A stretch of 64,000 nucleotides of DNA from IMG/VR virus record IMGVR_UViG_3300048598_000131; one strand, written 5' to 3'. A program made the position numbers and the translations under genes. The notes below the pieces were generated by a model. The model searched no databases, had not been told where the DNA came from, and saw only the letters and a list, made by a program, of their open reading frames with translations. This document shows positions 12,954 through 61,003 of the stretch, one piece after another (position 1 is the stretch's first letter; every line of letters begins with the position of its first letter). This DNA comes from a virus (taxonomy: Duplodnaviria; Heunggongvirae; Uroviricota; Caudoviricetes).

Positions 12954-13823
12954 ATGAAAGACACATTATTTGAACCTGTAGTCGGAATACCAAAGTCATT
13001 TGAACAGTATGCAGAGAAGTTAAAGGGCGAAGATGATTCAAAATCATGCTTTCTTACTTTAGTCTCTGGTGCGAAAGAGCCAGAAGTCTGTAGCTGGGCA
13101 CATGACATGATGAATATGTACAAAGCTTGGTTTGAGAGCCTGGGCATGAAGTGTATTGTGCTGCATACAGCGTGCCTTGATGGTAAGCCAGAGCTTATCG
13201 CACGTGCGACGTTGCTGATAGTGGGTAACTATGCTTATGGCATTGGCAAGTGTGAGACGGGCATTCATCGGTGTAGTCGCTGGACGAAATTTAAGCCGAC
13301 GGCTATGCTGTGTACATGCTTTGTCTCAGTAGAGGTTTTACCGTTTGACGCTATAAGCGTTAAAGACTACGAAGCTGAGTTATTCTATTCTGTAGGTTTC
13401 GACTTTTTGGCTGGATCGTCTACGACGATTATTACTGCGATGCGTGAAGGAGCCGAAGCGAGTGTTACACTTACACCTGCTACTGAAATTAGCGTGATCG
13501 GGGCTTGCGTTAAAAATGACATAGCTGTTCCTAAGACAGAATATAAAGAGTCGGATGTTGCTACAGTTAAGGGAGGCAACTTAGAATCGGATATTATGGT
13601 TGCTATGGTCAAGCACCTGCTTGCCGCGAGATTGAACAACGGAGCGTTTAGCATAGCGTGGGGTAACATTATTCGCAGCTATGTGTTTGCGCCGTATACG
13701 GCGATAAAGGACAGCCGTAATGGCTATGAGACGGCTAACGTGAACGGAGTAGTGAACGGCGATTTAAACGAGTTAGTTGCCTTGTGGTTTGAGCACGGTT
13801 GTCCTAATACCTGCTCAGCATAG
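12954..13823 (+). CDS. hypothetical protein
   Basis: 289-aa ORF with good coding look. No motif recognised. Confidence 0.55.
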   Translation: MKDTLFEPVVGIPKSFEQYAEKLKGEDDSKSCFLTLVSGAKEPEVCSWAHDMMNMYKAWFESLGMKCIVLHTACLDGKPELIARATLLIVGNYAYGIGKCETGIHRCSRWTKFKPTAMLCTCFVSVEVLPFDAISVKDYEAELFYSVGFDFLAGSSTTIITAMREGAEASVTLTPATEISVIGACVKNDIAVPKTEYKESDVATVKGGNLESDIMVAMVKHLLAARLNNGAFSIAWGNIIRSYVFAPYTAIKDSRNGYETANVNGVVNGDLNELVALWFEHGCPNTCSA

Positions 13824-38344: not shown

Positions 38345-38977
38345 ATGATTCCTACAAACCCATATGGAAATGTGGATTTAACGCACGGTGATGTTCCTAA
38401 AGGCTGTGTACACGTTCCAGGACAGCGGTTATCGGTTACGTGCAAGTCTATAGGCATTGAATGTGCTCCAGCAGTTACAGGATGGTCCAAAAATCGTTAC
38501 GGTTATTCTCCGGTTACAGACGGTGTTGTAATCCACGCTAAGGACAAAGCTAAGTTGCTCGCAGCTATTGCCAAGCGCGATAAAAATCGTTTATCTCCAG
38601 CTTCAAGACTGGCTCTACGTGCAAAGAGACAAAAGCGTGATACAGCTGATTTTTCTGAGCTGATACGCCAAAGATATCCATCAATGCCAGAAAGCGATGT
38701 AATGGCCTGTGCTGAGCATGCTACAGAGATAGGAAGTGGCAGAGTTGGCCGGACGTCAGATGATGTGGATACTGTGCGTTGTGCGGTTGTAGCTTATGCA
38801 CGTCACAACTACACAGACTATGATAGTCTACTTAGCAGATATAGAAGTTCAGGTAGTGATGGCCGAGACCAGGCCAGAGAAGAAGTATCGGATGATATTC
38901 GCAAAAAGGTAGCTGAGTGGGAAACGCCTAAGCCATCAGTTGCCGAGTGTATTGTGTCCAGTTTGATTAGTCAATAA
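38345..38977 (+). CDS. hypothetical basic protein
   Basis: 210-aa ORF. Confidence 0.5.
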   Translation: MIPTNPYGNVDLTHGDVPKGCVHVPGQRLSVTCKSIGIECAPAVTGWSKNRYGYSPVTDGVVIHAKDKAKLLAAIAKRDKNRLSPASRLALRAKRQKRDTADFSELIRQRYPSMPESDVMACAEHATEIGSGRVGRTSDDVDTVRCAVVAYARHNYTDYDSLLSRYRSSGSDGRDQAREEVSDDIRKKVAEWETPKPSVAECIVSSLISQ

Positions 38978-41098: not shown

Positions 41099-43495
41099 TT
41101 GATGTTTGCGAGTAATGCCTACTATCAGTACGTTGATGCACACGGGCGCCTAATCTTTGTATCTGGCGGAAGTCTCATAGACAAAGGGGATTGGACGGCC
41201 TTGTCAGATTATGCGTACGGAAATGTAGTAGCTTACTCAGATAATCTTTATGTTGCTTTAGGGACAATTAGTGCACCTGGATCAACACCGGCGGCTTTAA
41301 CCTACGGTTACACAGATAATCCACTGTGGGCTGAGCTAACGTTAAAGATGGTGAGTGTTCCATCCACAGGTGGAACTACGGTTACACCGCCTACTACAGC
41401 TGTTAGTAGCTTAGATACGGGAGCTGTCTATCAGATTGTAAATGGCTATGGAATATCGAAGTACATATCTGGTAGTAATGTAACACTAAAGGGACCTTGG
41501 GACACTACGGTATCTTACATTGTAAATGACGCTGTAATTTACAACGGTGTTATTCTTGTGTGCGTAGTTCCTGTATCTCCTCCACAGACTTATCCTTATT
41601 TAGGCGTCTATGGCACAGGTAACTTTACTTATTGGTCTTATCTTACATTGACTAGCTACACTAGCTCGTCAGTGCTAGTAACCGGGTACACTGCTTATCA
41701 GAGCCAAGTTGTACTAGGTGGTCCTACTGGTCCAACAGGCTATACAGGCTACACAGGTTCATCTGGTGATCAGGGTTCGACGGGTTTTACCGGCTATACA
41801 GGATATACGGGTCCATTGGGATTCACAGGTTACACAGGCTATACTGGACCTTTTGGCTTGGGTGACACAGGATATACAGGATACACTGGAACTACGGGAC
41901 CTCAGGGCATACCTGGAATTCAAGGCTCAACCGGTTATACAGGTTACACAGGACCACAAGGTCAAGATTCTACAGTAACGGGTTATACGGGATTTACAGG
42001 CTACACGGGTTCTCCAGGAACTAATGGAATTCAAGGTTCAACCGGTTATACAGGGTACACCGGTCCTACTGGACCTGGAAATTTTACAGGTTACACTGGC
42101 TATACAGGCGTTTCTGGATCACAGGGATCCACAGGTTACACAGGATTTACAGGTCCACAGGGAAACCAAGGTAATCAAGGTTTAATCGGTTACACTGGAT
42201 TTACAGGATATACTGGAAGTCAAGGTGGAGTAGGCAGCACAGGCTACACTGGCTATCAAGGTCCTACAGGATACACTGGTTATACTGGTCCACAAGGTAT
42301 TCAGGGTGTAACAGGGTATACCGGCTACACAGGATATACCGGAAGAACGGGTTACACAGGGTACACCGGACCTACAGGCGTTACAGGATACACAGGGTAC
42401 ACTGGACCGTCTGGAAGTAACGGTAGTCAAGGGACTACCGGTTATACAGGTTACACTGGAAATCAAGGATCCACGGGCTATACAGGATATACTGGTCCAA
42501 CAGGAACTGCTTCGAATGTAACGGGTTACACTGGATATACCGGTCCGCAGGGATCATCCTATACGGGTTACACAGGATATACTGGTGGATTAGGGAGCAC
42601 AGGACAGACCGGTTACACCGGTTATACTGGCCCGGCAGGACTAGCATCCACTGTAACTGGATACACTGGCTATACGGGACCTTCAGGCAGCAATGGAAGT
42701 CAGGGCACTACCGGTTATACGGGATATTCAGGTTCATCAGGCACTACGGGATATACAGGCTACACCGGTCCTTCAGGAAGTAACGGTAGTCAAGGTTCAA
42801 CAGGCTACACAGGTTACACAGGACCTGCTGTAACAGGCTATACCGGTTTTACAGGTCCAGCTTCTACAGTAACAGGATATACTGGCTACACGGGATATAC
42901 CGGTAGGACAGGTTATACAGGATACACTGGTCCACAAGGACAAACAGGATATACGGGTTATACTGGTCCAACGGGTGCTGCTTCTACTATTACAGGATAC
43001 ACTGGATACACGGGCTACACAGGTTCGTCTGGAGCTGCATCTACGATTACTGGTTATACAGGTTACACTGGGCCTTCAGGTAGTAACGGAAGCCAGGGCA
43101 ACACAGGATATACGGGTTATACAGGATACGCGTCAACAGTTACGGGTTATACCGGTTACACAGGCCCACAAGGATTAGCCTCTACAATAACAGGGTATAC
43201 CGGTTATACCGGTTCTCAAGGTGGCATAGGTTCTACGGGATATACAGGTTACACAGGTTCATCTGGTAATACTGGTTCATCCGGTTCAACTGGTTACACA
43301 GGGTACACAGGATATACAGGACCACAAGGGATAGCTTCCACCATAACTGGATACACAGGATACACCGGAATATCAGGTTCAACTGGCTATACTGGCTATA
43401 CAGGTCCTCAGGGTCCAACCGGTCCAAGCGGCTCAGGCGGATCAGGCGACGTAACAGCAGCCTATGTGGCTGCGATTGCAATTGCACTAGGATAA
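41099..43495 (+). CDS. collagen-like triple-helix-repeat protein (Gly-Tyr-Thr triplets), fibre protein 1
   Basis: About 200-aa N-terminal non-repeat domain (..[16 protein letters not shown]..). Then about 600 aa of uninterrupted G-X-Y triplets, dominated by [20 protein letters not shown]. Confidence 0.75.
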
Positions 43496-44972: not shown

Positions 44973-45349
44973 TGCTGCGATACAAGGACATACACATTAC
45001 TGCTGTAGGCGACGGATTTGTTGTAGCTAGATACGTTGTAGATGGACACAGTAGACATTTAGTTTACTGGAATAACGATAATGCGCAGTGGTTGTCTAGC
45101 TGTGCAAAACCGATGTCGTACGCGTTAGCTAATACTCTACAGCATAAGCTGGCTGATGCAGAGCTACAAGAACTATACACTTATGATTCAGTAGCATATC
45201 TAAGATCAGTTAATCCTATATTAGGACTGCGATTAGTTCTTAAAAAACTAATTTCTAAGCACAAGCTAGCAGGCTATTCTGCGCGCTGTTTTAGATATAA
45301 GCTGTCCAAGTGTAGGCTTAAAATTGCGAAAGCATTATGCGAACACTAG
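44972..45349 (+). CDS. hypothetical protein
   Basis: 125-aa ORF. Confidence 0.45.
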   Translation: MLRYKDIHITAVGDGFVVARYVVDGHSRHLVYWNNDNAQWLSSCAKPMSYALANTLQHKLADAELQELYTYDSVAYLRSVNPILGLRLVLKKLISKHKLAGYSARCFRYKLSKCRLKIAKALCEH

Positions 45350-45864
45350 CTAAAATTTATTCAGATATAGTAAAAGAATTTCCTTATCATTCAGATAAGG
45401 GTAGTAGTCACAGTTATATATCAGTATACGATAGTTTATTTGATAGCATCAAAGACAATAAGATGCGCGTACTAGAGATAGGTGTTGAGTACGGAACATC
45501 TTTGATAATGTGGGCTCGCTATTTTAAAAATTCGGAAGTTGTAGGCCTAGACATCAATACGGCTAATGTAAAATACGATGTTAGTCCGGCTAAGCTTATT
45601 CAGGGTAATTCACTAGATAAAAGCCTTAATTTAGGCATGTTTGATCTTATAATTGATGATGGGGGCCACGATGTAGAAACGCAGGCTAATACGATTTTGA
45701 ATATGCGTGATAGGCTATATCCTGGCGGGCATTATGTGATAGAGGACATCTTTGTTGAGAATGTTAAAAGTTTAAGTAACCTATTAGGTAAAAATACGTG
45801 TGTATACGATTTACGTGCACTAAAATATAGAGCTGATGACATAGTAATATGTTCTGTAAAGTAA
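45337..45864 (+). CDS. class I SAM-dependent methyltransferase (sugar/macrolide O-methyltransferase-like)
   Basis: DKGSSHSY..YD.LF......VLEIGVEYGTSLIMWARYF....VVGLDI.......G....IIDDGGHD is a Rossmann SAM-binding pattern. Confidence 0.6.
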   Translation: MRTLAKIYSDIVKEFPYHSDKGSSHSYISVYDSLFDSIKDNKMRVLEIGVEYGTSLIMWARYFKNSEVVGLDINTANVKYDVSPAKLIQGNSLDKSLNLGMFDLIIDDGGHDVETQANTILNMRDRLYPGGHYVIEDIFVENVKSLSNLLGKNTCVYDLRALKYRADDIVICSVK

Positions 45865-45879
45865 ACAAAATAAGATTAT

Positions 45880-46482
45880 ATGGATGATACAACAGCTACA
45901 ACTCCAAGTACAACGGTAACTAGTACTGACACAGCTACTACAGTTACAACTCCTAGCACTGATACAGTAACTCCTAGCACGAGCACTGTTACTGATACAG
46001 TAACTCCTAGCACAAGCACTGATACAATAAGCACAACAACTACAGCTCCAACTACAGCTCCAAGTACAACTCCAAGTACAACATCAAGCACAACGGTGTC
46101 GAATACAAGTGTGGATACGACGACTACAGCTACAAGTACGGATACTGTAACTCCTAGCACAACGGCTACCACAACAACTACCACAACAACTACTACGCCT
46201 ACGCAAGTTACAGCTTATGCAGTGAGTAACGGGGACGACATTCCAAGCGTGCTGTTTACGGATAAGCAAGTAGCTGATCATCTTAATCTAAGTAGAGGAA
46301 TATCTTCAGAATACACAGTAAGCGTTGATCCTAACGACGATAGCATTGGCACGATTACAATTACGCGTAAAGTTGCGTTAGATAATACAGTAGCTAGTGA
46401 CTTTTTTAAAAGCAGTGCTTTGTCTAAGCTTACTACAGATGAAGTAACTGCGCTTAAGAGTGCTTGGAATGTTAAAAGCTAA
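45880..46482 (+). CDS. Thr/Ser/Pro-rich mucin-like low-complexity protein with C-terminal globular domain
   Basis: The first roughly 110 aa are almost only T/S/P/A/V/D (TTATTPSTTVTSTDTATTVTTPSTDTVTPSTSTV...). The C-terminal 90 aa are ordinary. Confidence 0.55.
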   Translation: MDDTTATTPSTTVTSTDTATTVTTPSTDTVTPSTSTVTDTVTPSTSTDTISTTTTAPTTAPSTTPSTTSSTTVSNTSVDTTTTATSTDTVTPSTTATTTTTTTTTTPTQVTAYAVSNGDDIPSVLFTDKQVADHLNLSRGISSEYTVSVDPNDDSIGTITITRKVALDNTVASDFFKSSALSKLTTDEVTALKSAWNVKS

Positions 46483-46885
46483 ATTTTTTGAATAGCCATT
46501 CAACGCTAACTTTAGCTACGGCTGTGATGGCTATTACAGCAAGGACTGCAATTATAGCCCATTTTCCGGTAAAATATTGCTTCCAATCCCATAAGGTGTT
46601 TAGCCTAGGACTTATAGACTCCGAGATATCTTTTTTAATTCCGTCTATGTCGCTATAGCGCAACTCAGTTTCCGCCAGTCGCTTTTCTGCCTCTGAAAAA
46701 CGTTTGCTGTGTTCGATTACGGTATTGAGCGTCCAATTCGACTGATTTTCCAGTTTACTCACAGCTTCCACGAGATAACGTTCATCATCTGGTAAATTTT
46801 TTATCAGATGACTTGGAATGCTGCTTTTAAACACTGGAATGGGCGAATCAACTGAATTGTCGCTTCCACAGCTCATGTCTTTCAT
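46472..46885 (-). CDS. hypothetical protein with C-terminal transmembrane anchor
   Basis: 137 aa on the minus strand. The C-terminus reads WAIIAVLAVIAITAVAKV. Confidence 0.5.
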   Translation of the reverse strand: MKDMSCGSDNSVDSPIPVFKSSIPSHLIKNLPDDERYLVEAVSKLENQSNWTLNTVIEHSKRFSEAEKRLAETELRYSDIDGIKKDISESISPRLNTLWDWKQYFTGKWAIIAVLAVIAITAVAKVSVEWLFKKFSF

Positions 46886-47115
46886 TTCAACATTAAATAC
46901 AGTTTAACATCAACAGTGCTAAGATATAGCACTCATTTAGTTCTAACAGGCTAGGGCAGTCAAAAAGTGCGTACACGAATACTATTAGCTATAATGATTA
47001 CACTAATATTAATACTGAATACATCGCAAGTGCTGCTACGCTAGACGCTGTAGATAAAGTGCCCAAAATTACATAAAATGTGCTAGTCGTATTTAAGACT
47101 TAAATGTAGTTAACT

Positions 47116-47376
47116 ATGAAGCGAGTGATCATATTAGTTTCGTTGGTTGTGCTAATGAGCCTATTTGGATGTGCAGCAGGAAAAAATAGGGTATATCCTG
47201 TAGTTGGCTTTGGATGGATATCTGTTGCAACAAATACTGAGGATTTGTCTGTAATAAAAACAACTCTTATAGGGCCTGGAATAAATATGAGATCACAGTC
47301 AGTAGTTGTTGGTTACGAACAGTCTGTGATAGTAAAAGCAAAGACAAATGCTGATAACATAATTGAGGTAAAATGA
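47116..47376 (+). CDS. putative lipoprotein
   Basis: Signal peptide plus lipobox: MKRVIILVSLVVLMSLFGC. Confidence 0.55.
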   Translation: MKRVIILVSLVVLMSLFGCAAGKNRVYPVVGFGWISVATNTEDLSVIKTTLIGPGINMRSQSVVVGYEQSVIVKAKTNADNIIEVK

Positions 47377-47765
47377 GAAATATTTACGTTGCTTTAGCCG
47401 CTATATGCTTAATCTGTGGGTGCAAAGCGCCGACATCGAGCACAATTGTTTTTACGACAACAGTGCTAGGTTTTGAAGTAGCTCAGAATCCAGTCAGTCA
47501 GATGTATCAGGCAAGATTGGGCTATGTTAGAGCAGAAGCTGCTTACACTCCATCGACTAATTCTGATTTGATAACTGAAATGAGATGGAATTCTATTTTT
47601 ACGACTGGAGGGCTTTATCAGCGCATGGCCATCGGCAAGACGGCTGTTGATAATTCAATGTACATGTTCGTAAAAGACGATAACGGAAAAATAGATACGA
47701 ATACGGTAACAAAGCTGATATCGATAGGTGAAGCTAAAATCAAAGCAGCGAATACAAATCGGTAG
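47373..47765 (+). CDS. putative lipoprotein
   Basis: MRNIYVALAAICLICGC has a lipobox-like cysteine. The start overlaps the upstream stop (ATGA). Confidence 0.55.
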   Translation: MRNIYVALAAICLICGCKAPTSSTIVFTTTVLGFEVAQNPVSQMYQARLGYVRAEAAYTPSTNSDLITEMRWNSIFTTGGLYQRMAIGKTAVDNSMYMFVKDDNGKIDTNTVTKLISIGEAKIKAANTNR

Positions 47766-47770
47766 AATTT

Positions 47771-48823
47771 ATGGCGTGGAATTCGGCGCTTAACTATGTC
47801 TATTTTGATAAGAGTTTAAAAACGTATTCAGTATATGGATATTCTTTAAACTTTAAAGGCACGTGGATACTGTCTACTCTCTATTCTAAACTTGATGTAG
47901 TAAGCGTAGGCACAGACCTGTACGTAGCCTTGTGCGCTAATCAAGGTATAAAGCCTAGTGGCACTGTTAGCACGCAGTGGTCAGCACTGATACAGGTAAA
48001 TAATACGTTGTCAGGCTCTGGAGGTTCTACAGGCTATACTGGACCTGCGGGTGCAGATGGAAGCATAGGGCCAACTGGATATACGGGTTACACAGGGCCT
48101 AAGGGAGATTCTGCTGATTTAGGCCCTGATGTCATAAATTGCAGTAATATCAACTGGGGTAACGGGACTGATCAGGTAAATTCTCAACAGATGCCCTACG
48201 CGAATAGTGGCTATCCTAGTTTAATCACTGTTGCTGCTGCGCTAGACCATTTGCTTTATGTACCGCTGGTAATAAATGCCTTCACTAATACGGTTAATGT
48301 GGTCGAAATTGGAGCGACTGTAAGCTCAGTTCAACTAGATTGGGTATATAACAAAAGTGTAACAAGCCAACATCTAAGCGTAGGTCCGTCTTCTTTAGAT
48401 GTGAGTCTTAGAGATTACACAGATAGTTCGTCATATACATCAAATAAAACATATACACTGTATGCTTCTGACGGAACAACGAGTCTAACGGCATCTACTT
48501 CTTTAATTTTTAGACCGAGAAATTATTATGGTCAAAGCGCGTCTAGCACGTTAAATAATTCAGGCGTACTTGCTTTAGCTTCAAATCCATTAGCTTCTGG
48601 AAAGGGCTTGAGTCTTAGCAACTATGTCATATCTAGCGCTTATATGTGGTTTTGTTATCCAGCTGGCTATGGCACGGCAAATTTTACGGTTAATGGATTA
48701 GCCAATACTGCTTGGACACTTACTACACTATCGCTTACAAATGCGTCTGGTTATACACAGAACTATTACTGTTATAGATCAAACAACGTGTTAAACGGAA
48801 CATATAGTTTTACATTATCTTAG
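47771..48823 (+). CDS. short collagen-like protein with C-terminal globular domain, fibre protein 3
   Basis: The N-terminal domain (..[17 protein letters not shown]..) resembles the N-terminus of 41099..43495. It has about 15 G-X-Y triplets ([28 protein letters not shown]), then a 230-aa non-repeat domain. Confidence 0.65.
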
Positions 48824-48827
48824 CAAT

Positions 48828-51800
48828 ATGCCTACCATACCAGGTACAGTAGTAGCAGCAGCAATAACAACGGGTGATACCAATCTTTTATTTTCAATTG
48901 GTGATACAAATGAAATGCAGGGAGGCCATCATTCAGTAGCAGCAGATACTGATAGAGACAATATACCTAGCGCGAGACGAACAGAAGGTATGAGCTGCTG
49001 GGTACAGACGAGCCAGAAACTTTATAGGCTTGTAGGTGGTATAGACAATTCTAATTGGACTGAAGTTACCGTAGCTCCAACCGGTTATACTGGTTACACT
49101 GGTCCTCAAGGTCCTGGAGGAGAAGATGGAGGCCCAACAGGATACACAGGGTACACTGGACCTACAGGAGTTACCGGTTATACCGGTTACACTGGGCCGC
49201 AGGGAAATGCATCAACAGTTACGGGCTATACCGGTTACACTGGTTCATCAGGTAGTCAAGGCAGCACTGGATTTACTGGTTTTACCGGGTACACCGGATA
49301 TCAAGGGATTCAGGGATCAACTGGCTACACTGGATTTACAGGACCACAAGGAATACAAGGAGTTACAGGATATACTGGCTACACCGGTTATACTGGAAGA
49401 ACTGGATATACAGGATATACTGGAAATCAAGGTTCAACCGGCTACACTGGTTATACTGGTCCATCAGGCGCGCAAGGGACTACAGGGTATACCGGTTATA
49501 GCGGTCAAACAGGCTATACGGGTTACACCGGACCGCAAGGAAGTCAAGGGAGTACCGGCTATACAGGATTTACAGGACCTATCGGAGCTGCATCAACTGT
49601 AACAGGGTATACGGGATACACTGGTTATACGGGAAGAACGGGATACACCGGTTACACTGGTTCACAAGGAATTCAAGGTGCTACTGGTTATACAGGATTT
49701 ACAGGACCACAGGGAGTGCAAGGCGTAACGGGTTATACGGGATACACAGGTAGTCAGGGTGCCCAAGGCAGTGCTGGATTAGCAGGCGATACAGGATATA
49801 CCGGATATACAGGTTATACAGGACCTCAAGGAATTACAGGATACTCGGGTTCTCCAGGTCCAACAGGCTACACTGGCTATAGTGGTCAAGGCTATTTAGC
49901 CCATAGCTATTCAGCGCTTACGCTTACACTAGGCTCAGTGGCCTATGCAACAGCAGAAACTAATTTAGCTTATGCCGTAAGTGATAGAGTGCAGTTAACA
50001 TGTACCAGCGATCCTGCTGTATGGATGGCTGGATTTATTACAAATTATGACGGTGTAAATTCGTACGTAATAAATGTAGACCTGCTTAATGGTAGTGGAT
50101 CATATACAAGTTGGTCAGTAAGCTTGACAGGTAGGCTAGGAGCAACCGGTTATACAGGCTATACCGGAGCACAAGGAATTCAAGGTGCTACCGGCTACAC
50201 AGGCTATCAAGGTCCTACAGGTTATACCGGATTTACCGGTCCACAAGGTATTCAGGGTGTAACAGGTTACACAGGATATACTGGTAGAACAGGATATACG
50301 GGTTATACTGGTCCGCAAGGACAAACAGGATATACGGGTTATACTGGTCCACAAGGAAGCCAAGGTTCTACAGGTTATACAGGTTATACAGGATTTACGG
50401 GCTATACGGGTTACACGGGGCCTTCAGGCAGCAATGGAAGTCAAGGCTCAACTGGTTACACCGGGTACACAGGAGCTGCATCAACAGTTACGGGGTACAC
50501 CGGCTACACAGGTGCTGCGTCTACTGTAACAGGCTACACAGGTTATACCGGTCCTGTAGGTGCTGCATCAACTGTAACAGGGTATACAGGATACACTGGT
50601 TCTACTGGTCAAACAGGATACACAGGCTACACTGGTCGAACAGGATATACGGGCTACACTGGATCTCAGGGAATTCAAGGATTTACGGGTTATACAGGAT
50701 ACACTGGTCCAGCAGGTAGCAACGGTAGTCAAGGTAATACTGGTTACACAGGGTACACTGGCTATACAGGTCCTGTTGGTGCTCCATCAACTGTGACAGG
50801 TTATACTGGTTATACAGGATCTTCTGTAACAGGCTATACCGGATACACCGGTCCTCAAGGGCCGCAAGGACCGGGTGGAGAGAGCGGAGGCCCTACAGGA
50901 TATACAGGATATACAGGAGTAACGGGCTACACAGGGTACACAGGCTATACGGGACCTCAAGGACTAACAGGCTATGCAGGTTCAGCTGGTCCGACTGGCT
51001 ACACAGGGTATACAGGTTCAGGCTATTTGGCTTACAGCTATTCTGCGCTTACCGTCACTCTAGGATCAGTTGCTTATGCTACAGTTGAATCGGGCTTGGC
51101 TTACAGTATAGGGGATAGAGTTCAGCTTACTTATACAAGTGACTATAATATATGGATGTCAGGTACGATAACCGGATTTGATGGCGTAAATTCGTACGTG
51201 ATAAATGTGGATGCCACAAGCGGCAGTGGCTCATATATAAGTTGGTCAGTAGGTTTAGCTGGTAGAATTGGTTTTACTGGCTATACTGGACCTCAGGGAA
51301 TTCAAGGCTCTACAGGCTATACTGGTTACACAGGCAGTCAAGGCAATACCGGCTATACAGGATATACAGGACCTCAGGGTATCACAGGATACACTGGATA
51401 TACAGGTCCTGCTTCTACAGTAACAGGCTACACAGGATATACTGGTAGAACGGGATACACGGGATATACGGGTGGAACTGGTTATACCGGTTATACAGGT
51501 TACACAGGACCTGTTGGTAGCGCTTCTACGGTTACTGGCTACACAGGATTTACAGGTTATACCGGTCCGCAGGGTATTCAAGGAACTACAGGGTACACAG
51601 GGTACACCGGTTACACAGGGCCTGCTTCAACTGTTACAGGTTACACAGGTTACACTGGACGAACAGGATATACAGGTTACACAGGCCCACAGGGCACTAC
51701 TGGATATACAGGTTACACTGGACCTGCTGGATCTGCGTCTACAATTACAGGCTATACCGGTTACACTGGATATACTGGTCCTAGCGGCGTAACAGGCTAT

Positions 51801-54800
51801 ACAGGTTTTCAAGGAACTACAGGCTATACAGGTTACACAGGCTACACAGGTCCCGCTGGATTACAGGGGCCTACTGGCTATAATGGGGATCAGGGACCTA
51901 CGGGCTACACTGGTTACACCGGTTCAGGCTATTTAGCGTCAACTACTTCAACCCTTACAATTACAACCGGATCTGTAGCTTTTTCTACACTTAATAGCGG
52001 ATTAGCCTACGAAATCGGAGATAGAATACAGGTAACATCCACGAGTAGCTCTGATTTATGGATGTCTGGATATATAACAGGATTTGATGGTGTTAATCTA
52101 TACACATTTAATGCTGATACTTGCAACGGTGCAGGATCTTACAGTAGTTGGTCAGTGAGCCTAGCAGGAAAACCTGGCTCTACTGGTTATACAGGCTATA
52201 CAGGTCCACAAGGAAATCAAGGAACTATAGGATTTACTGGCTATACTGGATACACTGGAGTAACAGGTTACACAGGTTACACAGGTCCGCAGGGAAATGC
52301 ATCTACTGTAACAGGATACACAGGATATACAGGCAGAACTGGCTATACAGGTTATACCGGTCCGCAGGGAGCAACCGGTTACACCGGATTTACTGGTCCT
52401 CAAGGAATTCAAGGTGTAACTGGTTATACAGGTTATACAGGTTCACAAGGTATTACGGGCTACACAGGCTACACCGGAGCTGCGTCTACGGTTACGGGTT
52501 ATACAGGATATCAAGGAATTCAAGGTAGTACAGGATATACAGGCTACACTGGATCACAAGGCAATACGGGTTATACTGGCTATACGGGTCCTACTGGTGC
52601 AGCGTCTACTATTACAGGTTATACAGGTTTTACTGGCTATACTGGTCCACAAGGGAATCAAGGTGTCACAGGCTACACAGGATTTACAGGTCCAGCTGGT
52701 GCTGCATCAACTGTTACTGGTTACACAGGCTATACCGGTTACACAGGTCCAACAGGATTGGCTTCTACAGTAACAGGCTACACTGGCTATACAGGGAGAA
52801 CTGGCTATACAGGTTACACTGGATCAAATGGTGCTACAGGTTATACAGGCTACACAGGTTCAGCCTCTACAGTTACTGGCTATACTGGCTACACAGGATA
52901 TACTGGTCCACAGGGATTAGCCTCTACTGTTACAGGTTACACTGGCTACACAGGACCGCAAGGGAATCAAGGTGTCACAGGCTACACAGGATATACGGGT
53001 TACACTGGACCATCTGGCGCCGCATCTACTGTTACGGGCTACACTGGATACACGGGCTACACTGGTTCGCAAGGAATTCAAGGTCCTACAGGCTATACAG
53101 GATTTACAGGCCCTACTGGTTCAGCATCTACTGTTACTGGATACACAGGATATACTGGCTACACAGGATATCAAGGGGTCACAGGATATACGGGCTACAC
53201 CGGTCCTTCAAGAGGCAACAATATTGTTGTAGCCCTTCCAGCTAATGTCGGTGATTATACAGAAATAGGAAATTGGCTAAAGGCGAACGGACCACACAGT
53301 CTTATTTTAACAGCTACTTTATCAGATTTAGGCATGTCGGTGTCTCAGACATATCTGATAAATACAAGGTTTAATCTTACCTCTGGAACGTGGTATCGGC
53401 TAGTTCCGTCTAATATAAACACGCAACCAGAGATAACTTTCGACATAGATTTAAGTCAGACAAATAGCTATCTATACTTAAGAATACGAAAAACAAATGG
53501 TACATCAGCTAGTAATGTAAATATATACATACTAAACACAGGATACGCTGATGACGCTTTTACACAGACATATGGAACAGGTAGCACAACTGTTCCGACT
53601 AATAGTCTTACATGCGGCGTAGGACCTACAGGATATACGGGTTATACTGGGCCTGCTTTAAGCAGAATGTTTGATTTAGGACTGTTGCCCGCTGCTACTG
53701 CTAATTATGCACGTTATTATAGATTTGCTACGTTGCCTGTTAGCAGTGCAAGTACTTTTGATACACTGTGGTTGCACATGACTACAGGGGGCTGGATATC
53801 TGCTTCAAAAACTTATATTGATTTTAAGTGCGGTAATAGAGGCGGGTTTTACTACACATGGAATTACACAGGTTCATCGCCTAGAACAGGCAGCTATAAT
53901 AGTTTACAGGCTTACATAGAATCTACAGGAGCAGTTACGCTATACGTGACGGTAGCGGCTAATTCATACAGCTGTAGCGGAGTTTCAGTCATAAACAGCG
54001 AAGGTGCTTCAGTTGAAACTAGCTTCGTATACTTGGGAGATAATGTCACGCCTACAGGCACTCTAGCCTTTGATAGCGCAACATATTCAGTGTATGATAC
54101 TGAAGGCTCCGTGACGTCGAATATGCTGGGTGATACCCACTGGGTTCCAGGGACTGTAGGATCGCAAGGAACGTATAAATATTATAATGCTTACGGCACT
54201 GGTTCAAATAACAGTGTGTCTGTGATACAGGGGCCACATACTGAAGACATTGTGGCATGGCATGCTCCAGCGACAGGTCAGTCTACCTATGATGGTGGAT
54301 TTGATACGCCTTACATGACGATAGACAATAATAAGGCGTATAGATATACATGCTGGGTAAGTGTTGCAAATGATAACACAAATGGTGCTTATATCTATTT
54401 TGGACATAATGCTGGCTCTCTTTTAAACTTAGATGGTTCCACTCAGGTTTCTCCGAATTTTACTTATGTACCTCCTTCAGCGCTTACTTTAGGCAGATGG
54501 TACTTGATGGTTGGATATATATGGCCTAATGCCACAAGTAGAACTGCATCATCTAATCTTGGCGGTATATACGACGGAGTAACTGGTGCACAGATAGCTA
54601 ATGGAACTGATTTTAAGTGGGCATCTACGTCAGTTACTGCGTCATTAGTTACCACGGCTTTAGCGTCCACGACAGCTGTTGGAGACTTTTACTGGTGTGA
54701 ACCAGCTATAGAAGAGCTAAGCGGCAAAGAAAGACCGCTTAGTACCATACTTGGGTTAAAATCGGCTGTGAGCACGGTAGTTTCAGTTGTACTTCCTACC

Positions 54801-57011
54801 AGTAGCGTAAACAGCTATACTGAAATTGGAAATTGGTCTATTCCGAGTGGTGGACACACACTGCTAGTGACTATTACAGCGTCTTACACGGGATTTTCAA
54901 CTTCTCAGACGTATTCTATAAATACTAGCTATAACTATACAGGCGGCGTGTGGTATAGATTAGTACCGGCAGGCGTAGCCTCTTACTGTTTTGATCTGGA
55001 TATGAGCCAGACAAACAATGGGCTTTATCTTCGAATTAGAAATATATACGGAACACTAACCGCAGGTTCTGCCACGGTTTACATGCTGAACCTTGGTTTG
55101 GCAAATGATATCTTTACGCAGACATACGGCACGGGAACGACTACTGCGCCTGCCTCTAGCATAAATAGTGGTTTAGGCCCTACAGGATATACTGGCTACA
55201 CTGGACCTCAGGGAGTTATCGGCTACACCGGCTACACCGGTCCACAGGGAGTTACGGGCTACACTGGATTTACAGGACCTACGGGTGTTACGGGTTACAC
55301 TGGATACACAGGTTATACCGGTCCTCAGGGAAATGTAGGTTATCAAGGTGCGCAGGGTAATCCTGGTGCTACAGGTTATACCGGCTACACTGGCCCAACT
55401 GGAGTAACAGGTTATACAGGTTACACAGGTTACACAGGAGGAACTGGCTACACAGGTTATACAGGCTACCAGGGAGTTACGGGCTATACCGGTTACACTG
55501 GTCCATCAGGTATTACTAAGGTATCTGTTGCACTTCCAGTTAATTTAAATGATTACACAGAAATCGGTAACTGGGTTATTGGCAACGGTCCACATAGCTT
55601 ATTTATATCCATTACAGTGGCTGGGTCTGGCATATCAATATCTCAGACATACACGATAAATACCTATTACAATTATACTCTAGGCACATGGTGCAAAGTA
55701 GTACCGGCGAATATCGCAGATTATCAGTATGAAAAGTATGATTTAGACATATGTCAGACAAATAATACGCTTTATCTGCGAATTAGAAACACCTACGGGA
55801 GTTTTACCGGCTATGCCAATGTTTACATGCTAAACCTTGGTTATGCAAATGATGTTTTTACACAGACATACGGCACAGGTAATACAACAGCGCCTACGTC
55901 TGTTTTAAGCGGAGGCTTAGGTCCAACTGGTTATACAGGTTACACAGGGCCTTCAGGTAGTAACGGAAGCCAAGGCTCAACAGGTTATACCGGTTACACA
56001 GGTCCAGCCGGAAGTAATGGTAGCCAAGGAAGCACGGGTTACACAGGGTATACAGGTCCTGCTGGAATTACTGGTTCAAATGGAAGTAATGGTAGTACGG
56101 GATATACGGGATATACTGGTTATACCGGACCTGCTTCTACGGTAACAGGATACACAGGTTACACAGGATATACAGGTAGAACAGGATATACAGGTTATAC
56201 TGGCCCACAGGGAGTTACAGGATATACAGGATATACTGGTCCATCCGGCGCTGCATCTACGGTAACAGGCTACACAGGTTATACCGGTAAAGGCTACTAT
56301 GCAACGAGTGCGTCAACGCTTACGCTTACCACCGGTTCTGTGGCGTTTACGACTAGTCAGTCTAATCTGGCGTATGCTGTAGGTTCGAGAGTAAGACTTA
56401 CCTATAATAGCAGCAATTGGATGGAGGGCTATTTAACTGCTTATGATGGCGCATCCCTGTTTACTGTTAGCGTTGATAGCGTAAAAGGCAGTGGAACATA
56501 TAACGCGTGGACGTGTAACATGAGCGGTGAATACGGTGCTACTGGTTATACCGGCTACACTGGTCCTACTCCATCATCCTACGTTGCGCGCATAATTGCC
56601 GGTACAAACGTTACAATTGATCCAACTACCGGTACTGGCACTGTTACAATAAGCGTGTCGTCATCGTCTGATTTGCGCGTTAAGAAAAATATAAGACCGT
56701 TTACTGACGGCTTGAGCGTTTTGGAAAAATTACCCATAGTTCAATGGGAATTTAATGGTGCAGGAAATACAGTCGACGGCAAACACGGAATGGGTATCAT
56801 AGCCCAAGAAGTCGTCGATAAAATACCTTATTGTATCGGAACACGTAAAGGAAAACTACATCCAGATGATAAGGATGAAACTGATATATATACTGTTTGC
56901 AATGCTGATCTTGTTTGGGTTCTCGTTGTTGCTTACCAAGAGCTGTTAAAGTCTCACAGGCTGCTTGAGGAACGCGTGGCTAAGCTTGAGACTACTAGCG
57001 CTAAATATTAG
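48828..57011 (+). CDS. giant modular collagen-like tail-fibre/tail-spike protein (2727 aa) with C-terminal peptidase-S74 intramolecular-chaperone domain
   Basis: Long GYTGYTG.. collagen-like stretches alternate with repeated globular modules. Module A is about 85 aa ([19 protein letters not shown]...W..G.IT.(F/Y)DG(V/A)N.Y) in 4 copies at about nt 49890, 51021, 51927 and 56292. Module B is about 140 aa ([13 protein letters not shown]......H.L.......G.S.SQTY.INT.(F/Y)N....G.W(Y/C).(L/V)VP......LYLRIR...G......[17 protein letters not shown]) in 3 copies at about nt 53213, 54775 and 55514. A unique roughly 370-aa domain sits at about 53650-54770. The C-terminus [14 protein letters not shown]...GIIAQEV matches the SD.R.K.NI start of the endosialidase/T5-pb1-type auto-cleaving chaperone. 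Confidence 0.8.
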
Positions 57012-57022
57012 TTCTAATTCAG

Positions 57023-60000
57023 GTGCTGACAGGCATAAACTATGATTTTTGCAATGGGTTGCACCTGAAATTAGATGGCTACGGAGATGCATCAGATCGA
57101 TTTGATGTAAACCTTTATGACACTAGTAACAGGCTTAGTTCATTGTACAAATCTATTGGTTATAATGAACTACTGTCAGTAGATAAAACGTATTATATAC
57201 CTTGGCGCATCGTTATTAGCCAAGGCCCTTCTGTACTGTTTGATTATACGCTGTCATTACAGGACAAAAAGGTCGTGATAGCTAGTAGCTTAGGACTAGG
57301 CGATACACTCGCGTGGATTCCTTATGTCGATGTATTTCAAAAAGTGCATAAGTGCGCTGTTACTTTCTGGTCGAATTATTCCGATCTTCTTAAATCAGGC
57401 TATCCAAACATTCAATTTACCTCAGATAGCCATTGCGATAATGTATATGCGATGTATCAGCTCGGTTGTAACGACACTATTGGGGGTAAACTATCTCCTG
57501 AGATTTGGTACAAGCAGAATTTGCAAGACGTAGCTAAAACAATATTAGGACTAACTGGTTACGGAGAATTAAAACCAAGTATTGTTTTAGAAGACAATTT
57601 ACAAGACGATCTGTTTAAAGTTGTGTGCATAGCTACAGAGGCTACGTTTGACTGTAAACAGTGGAATTATCCACACGGATGGGAGCACTTAGCTTTTTGG
57701 CTGAAACAGCAGGGCTATACTGTAGTCAACTTAAGTGTTGATAGTAAAAAGATAGCTGGAATAGTCAGCATAGGTAAAAATGCTTCGTTGTTGGATATTG
57801 CCCTTTACATTAAGCACTGTAAATTTTTCATTGGTTTATCCTCTGGGTTGTCCTGGTTAGCTTGGGCTTTTGGTAAAAACATGGCCGTAATATACGGTGC
57901 AACTGAAAGTTGGCATGAGTTCAAAGATAAAATAGCTATTTGTCCACCTGAAGGCGTGTGTCACGGGTGCATACACGCAGGACAGATAGACCGGTCTAAA
58001 CCGGATTGGTGTCCAATGGGTAAAAGTTTTGAATGCACTAAAAGCATAAATCCTCAGCAGGTCATCGATGCTATAAAAGGCTATTTAGTTGCGTCTAAAT
58101 CTACGTTCTTATCGACTATGAATAAACCGCTATGGTCATTTGTACTAATCGCAAAAAATGAGGCAAAGACACTGCCACGATTTATGGGTTCGATAAAAGA
58201 GTTCACGAATCGCGGAGGTATAACAGTGGTGGTGGACACGGGGTCTACAGACGGCACACCTGAGGTGGCGCGCAAATTGGGTTGCATTGTTTACGAAGAG
58301 GGGCGCCGATTTATGACAACAATTTCAGCGGATTTAGCCAATGGGATAAACACGCGGTTTATTGTTGGTGATGATAAGGCAGTTGTATCTAGTGGCCAAG
58401 AACTTTTTGATTATTCAGCAGCCAGAAACTACGCAGCGAGCAAGGCTCCTACTGATGTGATTGCTATGCCTGATTGCGACGAGGCTTGGACAAAATTAGA
58501 CATAGATGCGATCAACAAGGCCATAGAAGATGGTATTGAGCGCTTTGAATACAATTTCGTGTTTAGTCACGATCAATTTGGAAATGAAGTTGTTAAGTTT
58601 CTGCACAGTAAGTTTTATGACCGGAGAAAAGTGCACTGGGAAGGGATAATTCATGAGCTATTGATGGGTGATAGCCGCACAAAGTTTTTTGACGAAAGTG
58701 TGATGAAGTTAGAGCACTGGCAGAATCATGAAACAAATAGATCAGGCTATTTGACCGGATTGGCTCTAGATTGCTATCTGCATCCCGAGAAAGACAGAAA
58801 TAGTCATTATTTTGCGCGTGAAATGCTGTTTATGGGCCGCTATAAATCAGCGATCAAAGAATTTGAGCGGCATATGGCGATGGATAAGTGGCTTCCTGAA
58901 AAAGCGCAGAGCATGATTTATGTTGGAGATTGCTATATCGCGCTGGGAGAAATACAGAAGGGCTTAAACAGTTACTTTCAAGCTTACTGCATGGATGGTA
59001 GTAGACGCGAATCGCTGCTTAAGCTCGCGCATCACTACTATAGACAAAACGATGCACAGCGCACAGCTGCTTTTGCTGCGGCATCGTTGACCGTTCCTTG
59101 GAACAATTTCTATTGCAATACCATGACAGATTATACATTTGAGCCGCATCAGCTCATGTACTGGTCTCTTTGGTGGTTAGGCGATCGAAAAGGCTCTAAA
59201 GAACACTGGGATAAAGCCTTTAACTGTGCAAAGTTTAATCCAAAATTCATTCAAGATGGCGTGTTTTATAACGATTACAAAGAATCAGGAATTGATGGTT
59301 GGATGAACTACAAAGAATGCGTATGGCTACACGGCGTTGCCAATAAAATGGATTCTATTTGTGAGATTGGCTCTTGGAAAGGTCGTAGTACACACGCTTT
59401 ACTGAGTGGGACTAAAGGAACAGTAACGGCTGTTGATCATTTCAAAGGATCTGTCGGAGAAGATGGGCCACATGCAGAAGCGAAGCAACCGGATGATCCC
59501 GTGTACAGACAGTTTATAGAAAACACGAAAGGCTTTGACAACTTAAACGTGTATCGGTCATCCAGTTTAGAAGCAGCAGCACATTTTGAGGGCCAGAAGT
59601 TTGACATGGTTTTTATTGATGCTGAACATAGCTATGAAGCAGTTAAAAAAGACATAAAAGCATGGAAATCAAAAGCTAAGCTCTTAATTTGTGGTCATGA
59701 CTATTCAGATGATTGGCCAGGGGTAAAACGTGCTGTGCATGAAGAGATAGGACTGGTTGATCACTGCGAATCTATATGGTACAAGTGGCTGGTAAATCCA
59801 AAAGTGAGTATCGTTATACCGACGCTAGATCGGCCAGAAAAGCTGGAGAGACTGCTTAACGGAATTAAAGACTGTGCTGGATATTCAAACTATGAAGTAA
59901 TTGTAAAGCAAGACAGCTTTCCTCCGTATAATATCGGTGTTCCTGTGCTGGTTAAGACGGCTGTGGCCGAAAGTAGCGGTGATCTTGTAATGTATCTTGG

Positions 60001-61003
60001 AGATGATTGCGTGCCTAAGCCAGATTTCCTGTTGAATGCTGTGTTGGACATGGCCAGATGGTTTCCTAACTTAGACGGATTAATTGCGTTAAACGATGGC
60101 TACTGGAAGGGCGAGATGGCTACGCACTGGCTGGCGAGCAAAAAATTACTTCAATACCTTGGCGGTGAATTTTTCCATACTGGATATTATCATGCAGGTT
60201 GTGACAATGAGCTAACTGAGCGCTGTCGAATGCTAAACAAGTATGCTTGGAGTGAGCGTGCCTTGGTAGACCATGATCATCCAATTAAAACAGGTTTTAA
60301 GCCTGAACAAATGGATGCTACGATGCAGTTTGCCTATCAAGATGTTCGGCGAACTCATGACCAAAATCTACTTGAAAAACGGTCTAAAATGTTTGGTTTT
60401 ACAGTTAAAGATTTTCATATTGAGCCAGTTGTTCCTAGACAAATATATACTATATGGCTTAATGACAGCCTAGACTATCCTGACTTGATTAAAAAGTGCA
60501 TAGCTACTCACAATTGGCCTGGCTATAGACATCGACTTATTACACTGGATAACTGTAATAAGGATTCAAATTACGTTAAGCGCTGTATTGAGTTAAGACA
60601 GTGGGCTCGCGCCGCAGACTATTTGCGAGCATACTATCTATGGAAAACAGGCGGTATTTACATCGATGCAGACATGGAGGTGCTTAAAGACTTTGACGAC
60701 TATTTAACCTCTCCATTAACTTGTGACAGAGAAGACAACGGATTTATTGCCAATAGCTTTATAAGCGCAAATCAAGGTAATAGAATACTGAAGGCTTATA
60801 TGGACGGTCTTGACGGTAAAGAATTTGACATGAGCGCCGATAGCACGTGGCATAACGGAATGGGCGCGTGGACAGTGCTCATTCAAAACGAATTGAATGG
60901 AGGCGCTAAAGACATCAATGTGCTGGATATTGGTAGCCTACGAGGTAGACTGCTGCATTACTATTCAAGGTCGTGGACGCAAACACCGGCGGTGCTTAAG
61001 TAA
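57023..61003 (+). CDS. multidomain glycosyltransferase/methyltransferase polyprotein (1326 aa): GT9-like, GT2, TPR, SAM-MTase, GT2, GT32-like (DXD)
   Basis: GT9 (heptosyltransferase-like): KVVIASSLGLGDTLAWIPY...GYPNIQF with FIGLSSGLSWLAWAFGKNMAVIYG. GT2: WSFVLIAKNEAKTLPRFMGSI...VVVDTGSTDGT. TPR-like helices at about 600-680. SAM-MTase: ICEIGSWKGRSTHALLSG...FIDAEHSYEAVKKDI...ICGHDY. Second GT2: KVSIVIPTLDRPEKLERLL...YLGDDCVP. C-terminal Gly_transf_sug/GT32-like: IYTIWLND...YLRAYYLWKTGGIYIDADMEV. Confidence 0.8.
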   Translation: MLTGINYDFCNGLHLKLDGYGDASDRFDVNLYDTSNRLSSLYKSIGYNELLSVDKTYYIPWRIVISQGPSVLFDYTLSLQDKKVVIASSLGLGDTLAWIPYVDVFQKVHKCAVTFWSNYSDLLKSGYPNIQFTSDSHCDNVYAMYQLGCNDTIGGKLSPEIWYKQNLQDVAKTILGLTGYGELKPSIVLEDNLQDDLFKVVCIATEATFDCKQWNYPHGWEHLAFWLKQQGYTVVNLSVDSKKIAGIVSIGKNASLLDIALYIKHCKFFIGLSSGLSWLAWAFGKNMAVIYGATESWHEFKDKIAICPPEGVCHGCIHAGQIDRSKPDWCPMGKSFECTKSINPQQVIDAIKGYLVASKSTFLSTMNKPLWSFVLIAKNEAKTLPRFMGSIKEFTNRGGITVVVDTGSTDGTPEVARKLGCIVYEEGRRFMTTISADLANGINTRFIVGDDKAVVSSGQELFDYSAARNYAASKAPTDVIAMPDCDEAWTKLDIDAINKAIEDGIERFEYNFVFSHDQFGNEVVKFLHSKFYDRRKVHWEGIIHELLMGDSRTKFFDESVMKLEHWQNHETNRSGYLTGLALDCYLHPEKDRNSHYFAREMLFMGRYKSAIKEFERHMAMDKWLPEKAQSMIYVGDCYIALGEIQKGLNSYFQAYCMDGSRRESLLKLAHHYYRQNDAQRTAAFAAASLTVPWNNFYCNTMTDYTFEPHQLMYWSLWWLGDRKGSKEHWDKAFNCAKFNPKFIQDGVFYNDYKESGIDGWMNYKECVWLHGVANKMDSICEIGSWKGRSTHALLSGTKGTVTAVDHFKGSVGEDGPHAEAKQPDDPVYRQFIENTKGFDNLNVYRSSSLEAAAHFEGQKFDMVFIDAEHSYEAVKKDIKAWKSKAKLLICGHDYSDDWPGVKRAVHEEIGLVDHCESIWYKWLVNPKVSIVIPTLDRPEKLERLLNGIKDCAGYSNYEVIVKQDSFPPYNIGVPVLVKTAVAESSGDLVMYLGDDCVPKPDFLLNAVLDMARWFPNLDGLIALNDGYWKGEMATHWLASKKLLQYLGGEFFHTGYYHAGCDNELTERCRMLNKYAWSERALVDHDHPIKTGFKPEQMDATMQFAYQDVRRTHDQNLLEKRSKMFGFTVKDFHIEPVVPRQIYTIWLNDSLDYPDLIKKCIATHNWPGYRHRLITLDNCNKDSNYVKRCIELRQWARAADYLRAYYLWKTGGIYIDADMEVLKDFDDYLTSPLTCDREDNGFIANSFISANQGNRILKAYMDGLDGKEFDMSADSTWHNGMGAWTVLIQNELNGGAKDINVLDIGSLRGRLLHYYSRSWTQTPAVLK

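Follow-up and report, generated by a model that had tools for sequence, protein, structure and literature searches.

The 64,000-nt IMG/VR record IMGVR_UViG_3300048598_000131 (Caudoviricetes), referred to over its whole length as the window in the following, hosts a fibre module between 41 and 61 kb, in which all genes, including the small open reading frames (ORFs), are encoded on one strand (Table 1). At the end of this module, an ORF of 1326 amino acids (aa) starts 11 nt behind the stop codon of a giant collagen-like fibre gene on the same strand. We consider it likely that this ORF encodes a soluble cytoplasmic multi-enzyme, which O-glycosylates the phage's own collagen-like fibres and subsequently extends and methylates the glycan, a reading for which homology and the conserved linkage of the genes provide strong support. 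A preliminary description of this DNA, made from the sequence alone, had already suggested that the virus builds and methylates glycans on its fibres, and the ORFs that it listed (a small methyltransferase, a Thr-rich ORF, the giant fibre, and the 1326-aa ORF) were all recovered at identical positions.

Table 1. Genes of the fibre module and modules of the 1326-aa enzyme, with positions in the window (GT, glycosyltransferase; SAM, S-adenosylmethionine; TPR, tetratricopeptide repeat; JGI, Joint Genome Institute)
Feature	Position	Strand	Match or remark
Collagen-like fibre protein, 798 aa, mainly G-Y-T triplets	41099..43495	+	Pfam Collagen 2.8e-64
Collagen-like fibre protein, 375 aa	43500..44627	+	Pfam Collagen 1.7e-32; Thr at 56% of Y positions
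Separate class I SAM methyltransferase, 175 aa	45337..45864	+	Methyltransf_24 6.8e-8, Methyltransf_31 5.4e-7
Thr/Ser/Pro-rich ORF, 200 aa, start codon uncertain	45880..46482	+	composition only
Tail-fibre-like protein, 350 aa	47771..48823	+	PHROG 5073 tail fibre 3.5e-16; single G-X-Y run, aa 85-114
Giant collagen-like fibre, 2727 aa, proposed glycan acceptor	48828..57011	+	Pfam Collagen 1.7e-151
Six-module enzyme, 1326 aa, GTG start	57023..61003	+	public JGI gene call identical (P0001)
Module 1, TibC/Aah-like protein O-glycosyltransferase with iron finger, aa 1-356	57023..58090	+	TIGR04414, 4rap
Module 2, GT-A fold GT2 of the SgtA-like unit, aa 365-590	58115..58792	+	PF00535 5.3e-17
Module 3, TPR, aa 591-755	58793..59287	+	designed TPR proteins ~2e-5 over aa 593-696
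Module 4, Methyltransf_24 class I SAM methyltransferase, aa 756-920	59288..59782	+	PF13578 4.2e-15
Module 5, second GT2 (GT-A), aa 921-1125	59783..60397	+	PF00535 on the isolated segment
Module 6, GT32-type Gly_transf_sug with DXD, aa 1130-1326	60410..61003	+	PF04488 6.3e-8, PF05704 (Caps_synth) 1.6e-5

The giant fibre terminates in a Peptidase_S74 domain (aa 2614-2664, 5.2e-10), an intramolecular chaperone typical of trimeric phage fibres and spikes. Its runs of at least five triplets comprise 407 Gly-X-Y triplets, in which Thr takes up 68% of the Y and Tyr 48% of the X positions. Counting runs of at least four triplets, G-x-T accounts for 285 of 419 triplets, and G-Y-T alone is present in 189 copies. 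A similar composition was found for the 798-aa fibre (Thr at 66% of Y and Tyr at 44% of X positions), which also matches PHROG tail-fibre families. As a reference, Thr occupies 31.6% of the Y positions in collagen-like proteins of all bacteria and 48.3% in those of Gram-positive bacteria, the majority of bacterial collagen-like proteins being not glycosylated according to the same review (PMC8968730). Reading the translation of the giant fibre furthermore revealed repeated non-collagen modules between the collagen runs, i.e., approximately four copies of a module of ~80 aa (G-Y-L-A-x-S-x-S-x-L-T...) and three copies of a module of ~130 aa (V...), as well as frequent A-S-T-V-T interruptions leading to a shifted triplet register.

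Domains of the 1326-aa enzyme

Pfam and NCBIfam scans support the glycosyltransferase and methyltransferase folds of the enzyme. Within the whole protein, Pfam recognized Glyco_transf_9 (aa 199-295, 6.9e-6), Glycos_transf_2 (372-429), Methyltransf_24 (780-885), and Gly_transf_sug/Caps_synth (1134-1229). The Methyltransf_24 threshold of 26.3 bits is exceeded by Module 4 (56.9 bits) as well as by the separate 175-aa protein (33.8 bits), and the GT32-type match to PF04488 reached 33.7 bits against a threshold of 23. The second GT2 was missed by the whole-protein scan; the isolated segment 919-1129 matched PF00535 (1.1e-6, 29.1 bits, cut-off 23.3), as did all 16 of 16 homologous segments. A profile built from these segments matched the solved GT2 structures 9jma (2.7e-6) and 6h1j (9.2e-6), and the stretch V-S-I-V-I-P-T-L-x-R-P-E, the N-terminal nucleotide-binding motif, aligns with solved GT2 enzymes. 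Together with the structure model described below, these matches account for all six domains that had been read from the sequence before (GT9-like, GT2, TPR, SAM methyltransferase, second GT2, and GT32-like with DXD).

In the homologue alignment, D484 and D486 of the D-C-D motif in Module 2 are invariant and C485 is nearly so; the same applies in full to the E-x-G-S-W-K-G-R-S motif of Module 4, to D995, and, within 12 sequences, to D1215-A-D1217 of Module 6. Based on this invariance of putative catalytic and cofactor motifs, the modules concerned look functional. An AlphaFold model of aa 355-1326, calculated from 35 sequences, depicts five packed domains (pLDDT 90.1, pTM 0.76), with the TPR visible as stacked helical hairpins at 576-748. 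This TPR domain is the probable binding site for the protein substrate. No membrane segment was predicted in the 1326-aa protein. The term polyprotein, initially applied to this ORF, had to be given up, as the model is compact, confident, and multidomain, and there is no indication of proteolytic processing; the protein is better described as a fusion enzyme.

The GT2-TPR part of the enzyme could be related to a protein glycosyltransferase of known function. SgtA of Clostridioides difficile is a GT-A enzyme with TPR, which transfers N-acetylglucosamine (GlcNAc) in beta-O-linkage onto Thr within the G-P-T repeats of the spore protein BclA3 and whose gene adjoins bclA3 (PMC7157674). For sgtA, a primer sequence was available and the gene itself was not present among the loci fetched; an SgtA-like ORF of Paeniclostridium hominis (L140:6253-7317, 354 aa) was used as its stand-in in the alignments, its start MISISLCMI resembling the primer-encoded MITISLCMI of SgtA. 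The enzyme aligned with this ORF end-to-end (aa 372-750 with residues 5-352; BLASTP E 7e-26, 24% identity). The SgtA-like unit thus shares with the SgtA/BclA3 system every sequence-level property that was examined: a GT-A domain with D-x-D motif followed by TPR, homology over the whole length, and a neighbouring gene for a collagen-like protein that carries Thr at Y. The parallel to BclA drawn initially has real homology as its basis. It differs from SgtA/BclA3 in being encoded by a phage rather than a spore former and in its fusion to four further catalytic modules, and the proposed acceptor is a virion fibre with mainly G-Y-T instead of G-P-T triplets and a length of up to 2727 aa in the window. 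In the Paeniclostridium locus, three large glycosyltransferase-like ORFs (662, 397, and 667 aa) precede the SgtA-like gene and could extend the glycan.

In a Foldseek search with the model, the peptide glycosyltransferases SunS and ThuS (PDB 7msn, 7msk) were the best matches (E 1.5e-14). They likewise combine GT-A with a helical, TPR-like peptide-binding domain and act on peptide substrates, but as glycocin S-glycosyltransferases they have their targets at Cys or Ser residues in small bacteriocin peptides, and the identity amounts to 12-15%. The flagellin O-GlcNAc transferase GmaR was found as a weak match on sequence level.

The N-terminal module had been described as GT9 heptosyltransferase-like. 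The GT9 match stands; the closer identity is a full-length homologue of TibC/Aah-type protein O-heptosyltransferases rather than of a lipopolysaccharide heptosyltransferase. Residues 3-352 cover positions 10-372 of the 374 positions of the NCBIfam model TIGR04414 (BAHT; E 5e-58, 196.8 bits), and the solved TibC structure 4rap matches as well (E 1.6e-31). With residue roles taken from PMC4358343, D94 corresponds to the catalytic Asp110 of TibC and C313, C316, C330, and C338 to the iron-finger Cys 339, 342, 358, and 370; the catalytic Asp and these four Cys are kept in 40-41 of 41 aligned homologues. Among the sugar-binding residues, T208, K212, and W278 correspond to T226, K230, and W305 of TibC. 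The position of TibC Pro300 is occupied by Ser, as in Aah (Ser294), and the phmmer alignment contains deletions opposite TibC 267-270 and 275-279, beside the thumb tip residues 265-266. TibC and Aah are cytoplasmic O-glycosyltransferases of repetitive proteins, TibC heptosylating the passenger domains of autotransporters (PMC4358343). By contrast, no autotransporter family matched any of the window ORFs scanned, the neighbours being collagen-like fibres, and the TibC-like module of the window is fused to a partner of 970 aa. The related contig L004 encodes its TibC-like unit (364 aa, 42% identity, E 8e-98) in a gene of its own, immediately ahead of the one for a 964-aa core, and this case of fusion or fission ties both units functionally to each other.

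Linkage to Gly-triplet genes in phages and bacteria

Close relatives (L001-L004, 62-65% identity) share the gene order of fibre, enzyme, small minus-strand ORFs, a protein with DnaJ-type zinc finger, and PcfJ, with the fibre product of L001 reaching 4689 aa. Extending this comparison to IMG/VR, a scan with the single protein as query did not retrieve any relatives among the viral contigs and an alignment-based query was needed, by which 277 contigs encoding relatives of the GT2-TPR core were found. For linkage analysis, 80 loci with flanks of 10 kb were kept. A collagen-like ORF was located within 10 kb in 60 of them, throughout on the same strand, and in 55 of these 60 loci its distance to the enzyme gene was 2.5 kb or less; when the loci were grouped into clusters at 80% identity, 42 of 58 clusters showed the linkage. 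Loci around the thymidylate synthase of the window served as control, and 0 of 22 contained a collagen-like ORF in a total of 395 kb (Fisher p 4e-11). The linked ORFs carry Thr at 73% of the Y positions and Tyr or Pro at 65% of the X positions.

All 80 core loci encode GT2 and TPR, while a second GT2 was detected in 72, a methyltransferase in 25, a GT32-type module in 20, and a TibC-like module in two. The commonest architecture is GT2-TPR-GT2 (47 times). The fusion order of the enzyme, initially not assigned to any recognized arrangement, is therefore not without parallel: its GT2-TPR-GT2 core recurs in many uncultivated phages, and the six-module protein represents the most extended, rarely found form of a common family. 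No close relative was found in cultured phages, as Megablast of the enzyme gene against 50,697 phage records returned no match and tblastn only partial matches of up to 32% identity (Microcystis phage Mel-JY01, huge metagenomic phages, PaBG, and Lu11). A full-text literature search in a limited collection yielded no report on a pairing of SgtA-like or TibC-like enzymes with collagen-like fibres of phages.

When bacterial genomes were scanned, with each species represented by one genome, distant homologues of the GT2-TPR unit (20-30% identity) turned up almost exclusively in Firmicutes. In a sample of 80 bacterial loci (L110-L189), a BclA-type collagen-like ORF adjoins the homologue in 56 cases, and in most of these ORFs Thr is more frequent at Y than any other residue, so that the pairing known from SgtA and BclA3 seems to be general in Firmicutes. 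The bacteria in question are Clostridia, Bacilli, and Paenibacillus. In the collection of bacterial genomes, close relatives of the enzyme were limited to L110 and L111, contigs of ~40 kb binned as Candidatus Scalindua and Akkermansia; they carry G-Y-T collagen-like ORFs and look like phage contigs binned into bacterial genomes.

TibC-like domains were likewise found to be frequent in IMG/VR, with at least 586 matching stretches. Within 80 loci kept (L191-L270), a GT2-TPR unit was present in none, and a Gly-triplet ORF, some of them giant, was located within 10 kb of the TibC-like domain in 52 (41 of 58 clusters). In these ORFs, the X position is filled by Thr (67%) and Ser (19%) and the Y position by Ser (61%) and Asn (24%). 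The repeats observed are of the kinds (G-T-S)n, (G-T-N)n, and (G-T-D)n, an example being locus L227 (L227:11744-21007 minus strand and L227:6692-11047 plus strand), which includes a (G-T-S)n ORF of 3087 aa. This suggests a second fibre-glycosylation pairing of TibC-like enzymes with (G-T-S)-type repeats. As the triplet composition differs between the two sets of loci, each protein-glycosyltransferase family appears to pair with its own kind of repeat.

The location next to a fibre gene could also be taken as a variable host-recognition region, from which an enzyme would be supplied during infection or lysogeny to alter the surface of the host cell (its lipopolysaccharide, its capsule, or some other surface polysaccharide or protein) and thereby block superinfection or change receptors. 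This is the usual reading of glycosyltransferases in fibre regions of phages (PMC7029224), the families GT2, GT9, and GT32 hold many polysaccharide enzymes, and the Foldseek list for the model also contains a chondroitin polymerase, a heparosan synthase, and a capsule multienzyme. A host-surface enzyme of this kind would, however, not be predicted to be linked to Thr-rich collagen-like ORFs in phages as well as in Firmicutes, and the closest characterized relatives of two modules act on proteins. Considering in addition the lack of a membrane segment and of a flippase or polymerase partner among the ORFs scanned, we regard a role at the host surface as rather unlikely.

Further genes of the fibre module and the window

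The separate 175-aa methyltransferase upstream in the module, which had been included in the initially proposed glycosylation toolkit, is a genuine SAM methyltransferase according to its Methyltransf_24 and Methyltransf_31 matches; its connection to the glycosylation system is a weaker one. The protein database did not contain a close counterpart (best match 43% identity), and distant homologues were found in phage cassettes for sugar synthesis and glycosyl transfer (L085-L087). A methylation of sugars by this protein is accordingly plausible from its homologues. In an SU10-like phage (L085:5457-11192 and L086), the cassette is flanked by the portal gene and the adaptor gene and comprises an epimerase/dehydratase, a DegT aminotransferase, two small methyltransferases, a TOD1_MUCI70-type protein, and a GT1; it may be a virion-glycosylation cassette within the structural module.

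This position next to portal and adaptor genes agrees with a scenario in which the targets of the 1326-aa enzyme in the virion are not the collagen-like fibres but, for instance, subunits of the capsid or the tail tube, as do the mycobacteriophage glycosyltransferases, which modify subunits of these two kinds (Freeman et al. 2023, cited in PMC12619734). The gene conserved as neighbour over dozens of phage lineages is, on the other hand, the collagen-like gene and not a capsid or tail tube gene, and the homology to SgtA points to G-x-T repeats as acceptor, leaving such alternative virion targets improbable.

The Thr-rich ORF was initially regarded as a mucin-type acceptor. The composition of its N-terminal 115 aa is as claimed (51% Thr, 14% Ser, 8% Pro), but the acceptor role found no support and was not adopted: the C-terminal domain is an orphan, with itself as sole match among 5.8 billion proteins, and the Thr-rich half lies outside the public JGI gene call (P0148), which covers the last 86 aa from a GTG. 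Scans of the ORF against Pfam, PHROG, and NCBIfam gave no match. The Thr-rich half is open on both strands, with a minus-strand ORF at 45876-46184; if the shorter call is right, ~350 nt would be non-coding, which is unusual for such a tightly packed region. A Shine-Dalgarno motif is present at 0 of the 12 gene starts of the cluster (41099-61956), and the start of the Thr-rich ORF cannot be judged by this motif, since no cluster gene has it.

The few matches of the window to cultured phages are cyanophages, i.e., Pseudanabaena phage Pam2, Microcystis phage Mel-JY01, and Synechococcus phage ACG-2014e. Pam2 is the sole match of a 952-aa ORF (25301-28159), and a similarity search with a 666-aa window ORF returned no match. 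In combination with the missing Shine-Dalgarno motifs, the cyanophage matches hint at a host that starts translation without them, e.g., Cyanobacteria or Bacteroidota. Downstream of the enzyme, a protein of ~560 aa with DnaJ-type CXXCXGXG zinc-finger repeats is encoded at 61956-63635; its counterparts in the relatives (L001:16222-17931, L004:7729-9351) are followed there by a PcfJ-domain protein. Other parts of the window encode a protein with a peptide-chain-release-factor PCRF domain (12954-13823, 2.1e-14) and a tRNA-Arg(TCT) (9887-9962), translation-related genes as they occur in large phages. Two adjacent SPFH/Band 7 paralogues (30495-31532 and 31545-32471, 9.8e-26 and 9.1e-27) were also detected, along with a 210-aa protein (38345-38977) combining a Rad4 beta-hairpin domain 3 (1.1e-18) with DUF2293 (7e-21), a pairing unusual for a phage.

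Genes for a thymidylate synthase and for a Lar-like restriction-alleviation protein are moreover present in the window, a gene content that would fit an enzyme hypermodifying the phage DNA with sugars against restriction, which is a classic role of phage glycosyltransferases (PMC9614988; PMC12619734). Similarity to a known DNA glycosyltransferase, though, was seen in none of the modules, GT-A enzymes with TPR and TibC-like enzymes have polypeptides as their substrates, and the gene belongs to the fibre module with its linkage to collagen-like genes rather than to a nucleotide-metabolism module. DNA as the target is thus highly implausible.

Proposed glycosylation of the fibres

Among the systems known from other organisms, the one in the window would, by analogy, work like SgtA/BclA3 and, for one module, like TibC/TibA, and share with Mimivirus and the mycobacteriophages the general theme only. 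In the case of Mimivirus (PMC9614988), this theme comprises a virus encoding collagen-like proteins together with an enzyme glycosylating them, the Mimivirus fibrils being heavily glycosylated. The initially proposed parallel to giant-virus fibrils holds to this extent and not for the chemistry: L230 hydroxylates Lys and glucosylates the resulting hydroxylysine as in animals, whereas the window points to Thr O-glycosylation of the bacterial type. An L230-like hydroxylysine route was rejected, because no matching domain (lysyl hydroxylase or 2-oxoglutarate/Fe oxygenase) was present in Pfam and NCBIfam scans of the enzyme and the scanned cluster ORFs. A further resemblance exists to BclA of Bacillus anthracis, a collagen-like surface filament with Thr-rich triplets, whose collagen-like region bears a rhamnose oligosaccharide capped by the methylated sugar anthrose (PMC6222408, PMC9614988); O-glycans including methylated sugars are congruent with the methyltransferase modules fused to or near the glycosyltransferases of the window. 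Homology to the pathway for anthrose or rhamnose was not found, no search aimed at it having been made. The mycobacteriophages provide the precedent of phage-encoded glycosyltransferases modifying structural proteins of the virion. In their case, separate small glycosyltransferases act on capsid and tail tube subunits at the C-terminus (PMC12619734), in contrast to the collagen-like fibre as proposed acceptor, the fusion of six modules, and the different enzyme families encountered here.

Considering these relations, fibre glycosylation would proceed as follows. During fibre synthesis, the TPR of the GT2-TPR unit (aa ~365-755) would bind the still unfolded chains, allowing the SgtA-like unit to place the first sugar on the Y-position Thr of G-Y-T and G-P-T triplets. 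By analogy to SgtA, this sugar might be an N-acetylhexosamine transferred from a uridine diphosphate (UDP)-sugar, with 285 G-x-T triplets offered by each giant-fibre chain. The TibC-like unit may add a second kind of O-linked sugar on Ser or Thr, possibly a heptose, although one sugar-binding residue differs. Extension of the glycan could then be performed by the second GT2 and the GT32-type module, and O-methylation of a sugar by the Methyltransf_24 module, perhaps also by the 175-aa methyltransferase. As no gene for nucleotide-sugar synthesis was found among ~45 window ORFs scanned, the donor sugars would be drawn from the host. Likely benefits are a stabilization and hydration of the triple helix without hydroxyproline as well as protection or a changed adhesiveness of these very long fibres.

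Several observations weigh against this assignment. We infer all enzymology of the 1326-aa protein from its sequence, and the sugar identities, the acceptor residues, and the order of steps are transferred from relatives at 24-35% identity. The TibC-like module narrowly fails the equivalog cut-off of TIGR04414 (200 bits), and Arg286, a sugar-binding residue of TibC, is replaced by Ile259 and variable among the phage homologues. TibC-like domains elsewhere pair with (G-T-S)n repeats, while in the giant fibre of the window only 8 of 419 triplets carry Ser or Thr in the X position together with Ser or Asn in the Y position. In respect to the linkage, 20 of the 80 core loci do not contain a collagen-like ORF in the available flanks, and the control consisted of non-structural loci, with tail-fibre regions possibly being richer in collagen-like genes in general; the cultured phages matching the C-terminal domain of the giant fibre amounted to five Synechococcus phage records, too few for a control set. 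Even so, glycosylation of the collagen-like fibres remains the reading that we favour. The initial proposal of fibre glycans built and methylated by these enzymes is hence retained with strong support from homology and linkage, with corrections regarding the small methyltransferase, the Thr-rich ORF, the uniqueness of the enzyme, and its designation as a polyprotein.

Beyond the window, relatives of each protein-glycosylating module adjoin Gly-triplet genes in approximately 70% of the sampled loci of uncultivated phages, and a sugar coating of phage fibres is for this reason probably common and undescribed. As a tentative model, which we hold at somewhat short of even chances, the long Gly-triplet fibres of many uncultivated phages might be hyperglycosylated "bottle-brush" collagens following a two-part acceptor code, in which SgtA-like enzymes address Thr at the Y position of G-(Y/P)-T and TibC-like enzymes address Ser of G-T-S or G-T-N; the enzyme of the window would fuse both initiators with extension and methylation. 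To our knowledge, the capsid and tail tube proteins of mycobacteriophages are the only components of phage virions for which direct glycosylation has been demonstrated to date. If true, the two-part code would constitute a widespread, hitherto undescribed post-translational system of phage virions and the first case of TibC-family enzymes acting on collagen-like substrates.

A large set of uncultivated phages, represented by at least 277 IMG/VR contigs with an SgtA-like core and, separately, by at least 586 TibC-like stretches, would in that case self-glycosylate their host-recognition fibres, with consequences for fibre stability, adsorption, adhesion to mucus or particles, and antigenicity. 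This would also explain many of the glycosyltransferases in phage fibre modules that are routinely annotated as modifiers of host lipopolysaccharide. The enzyme itself would represent a compact, soluble toolkit on a single polypeptide for the glycosylation of recombinant bacterial collagens.

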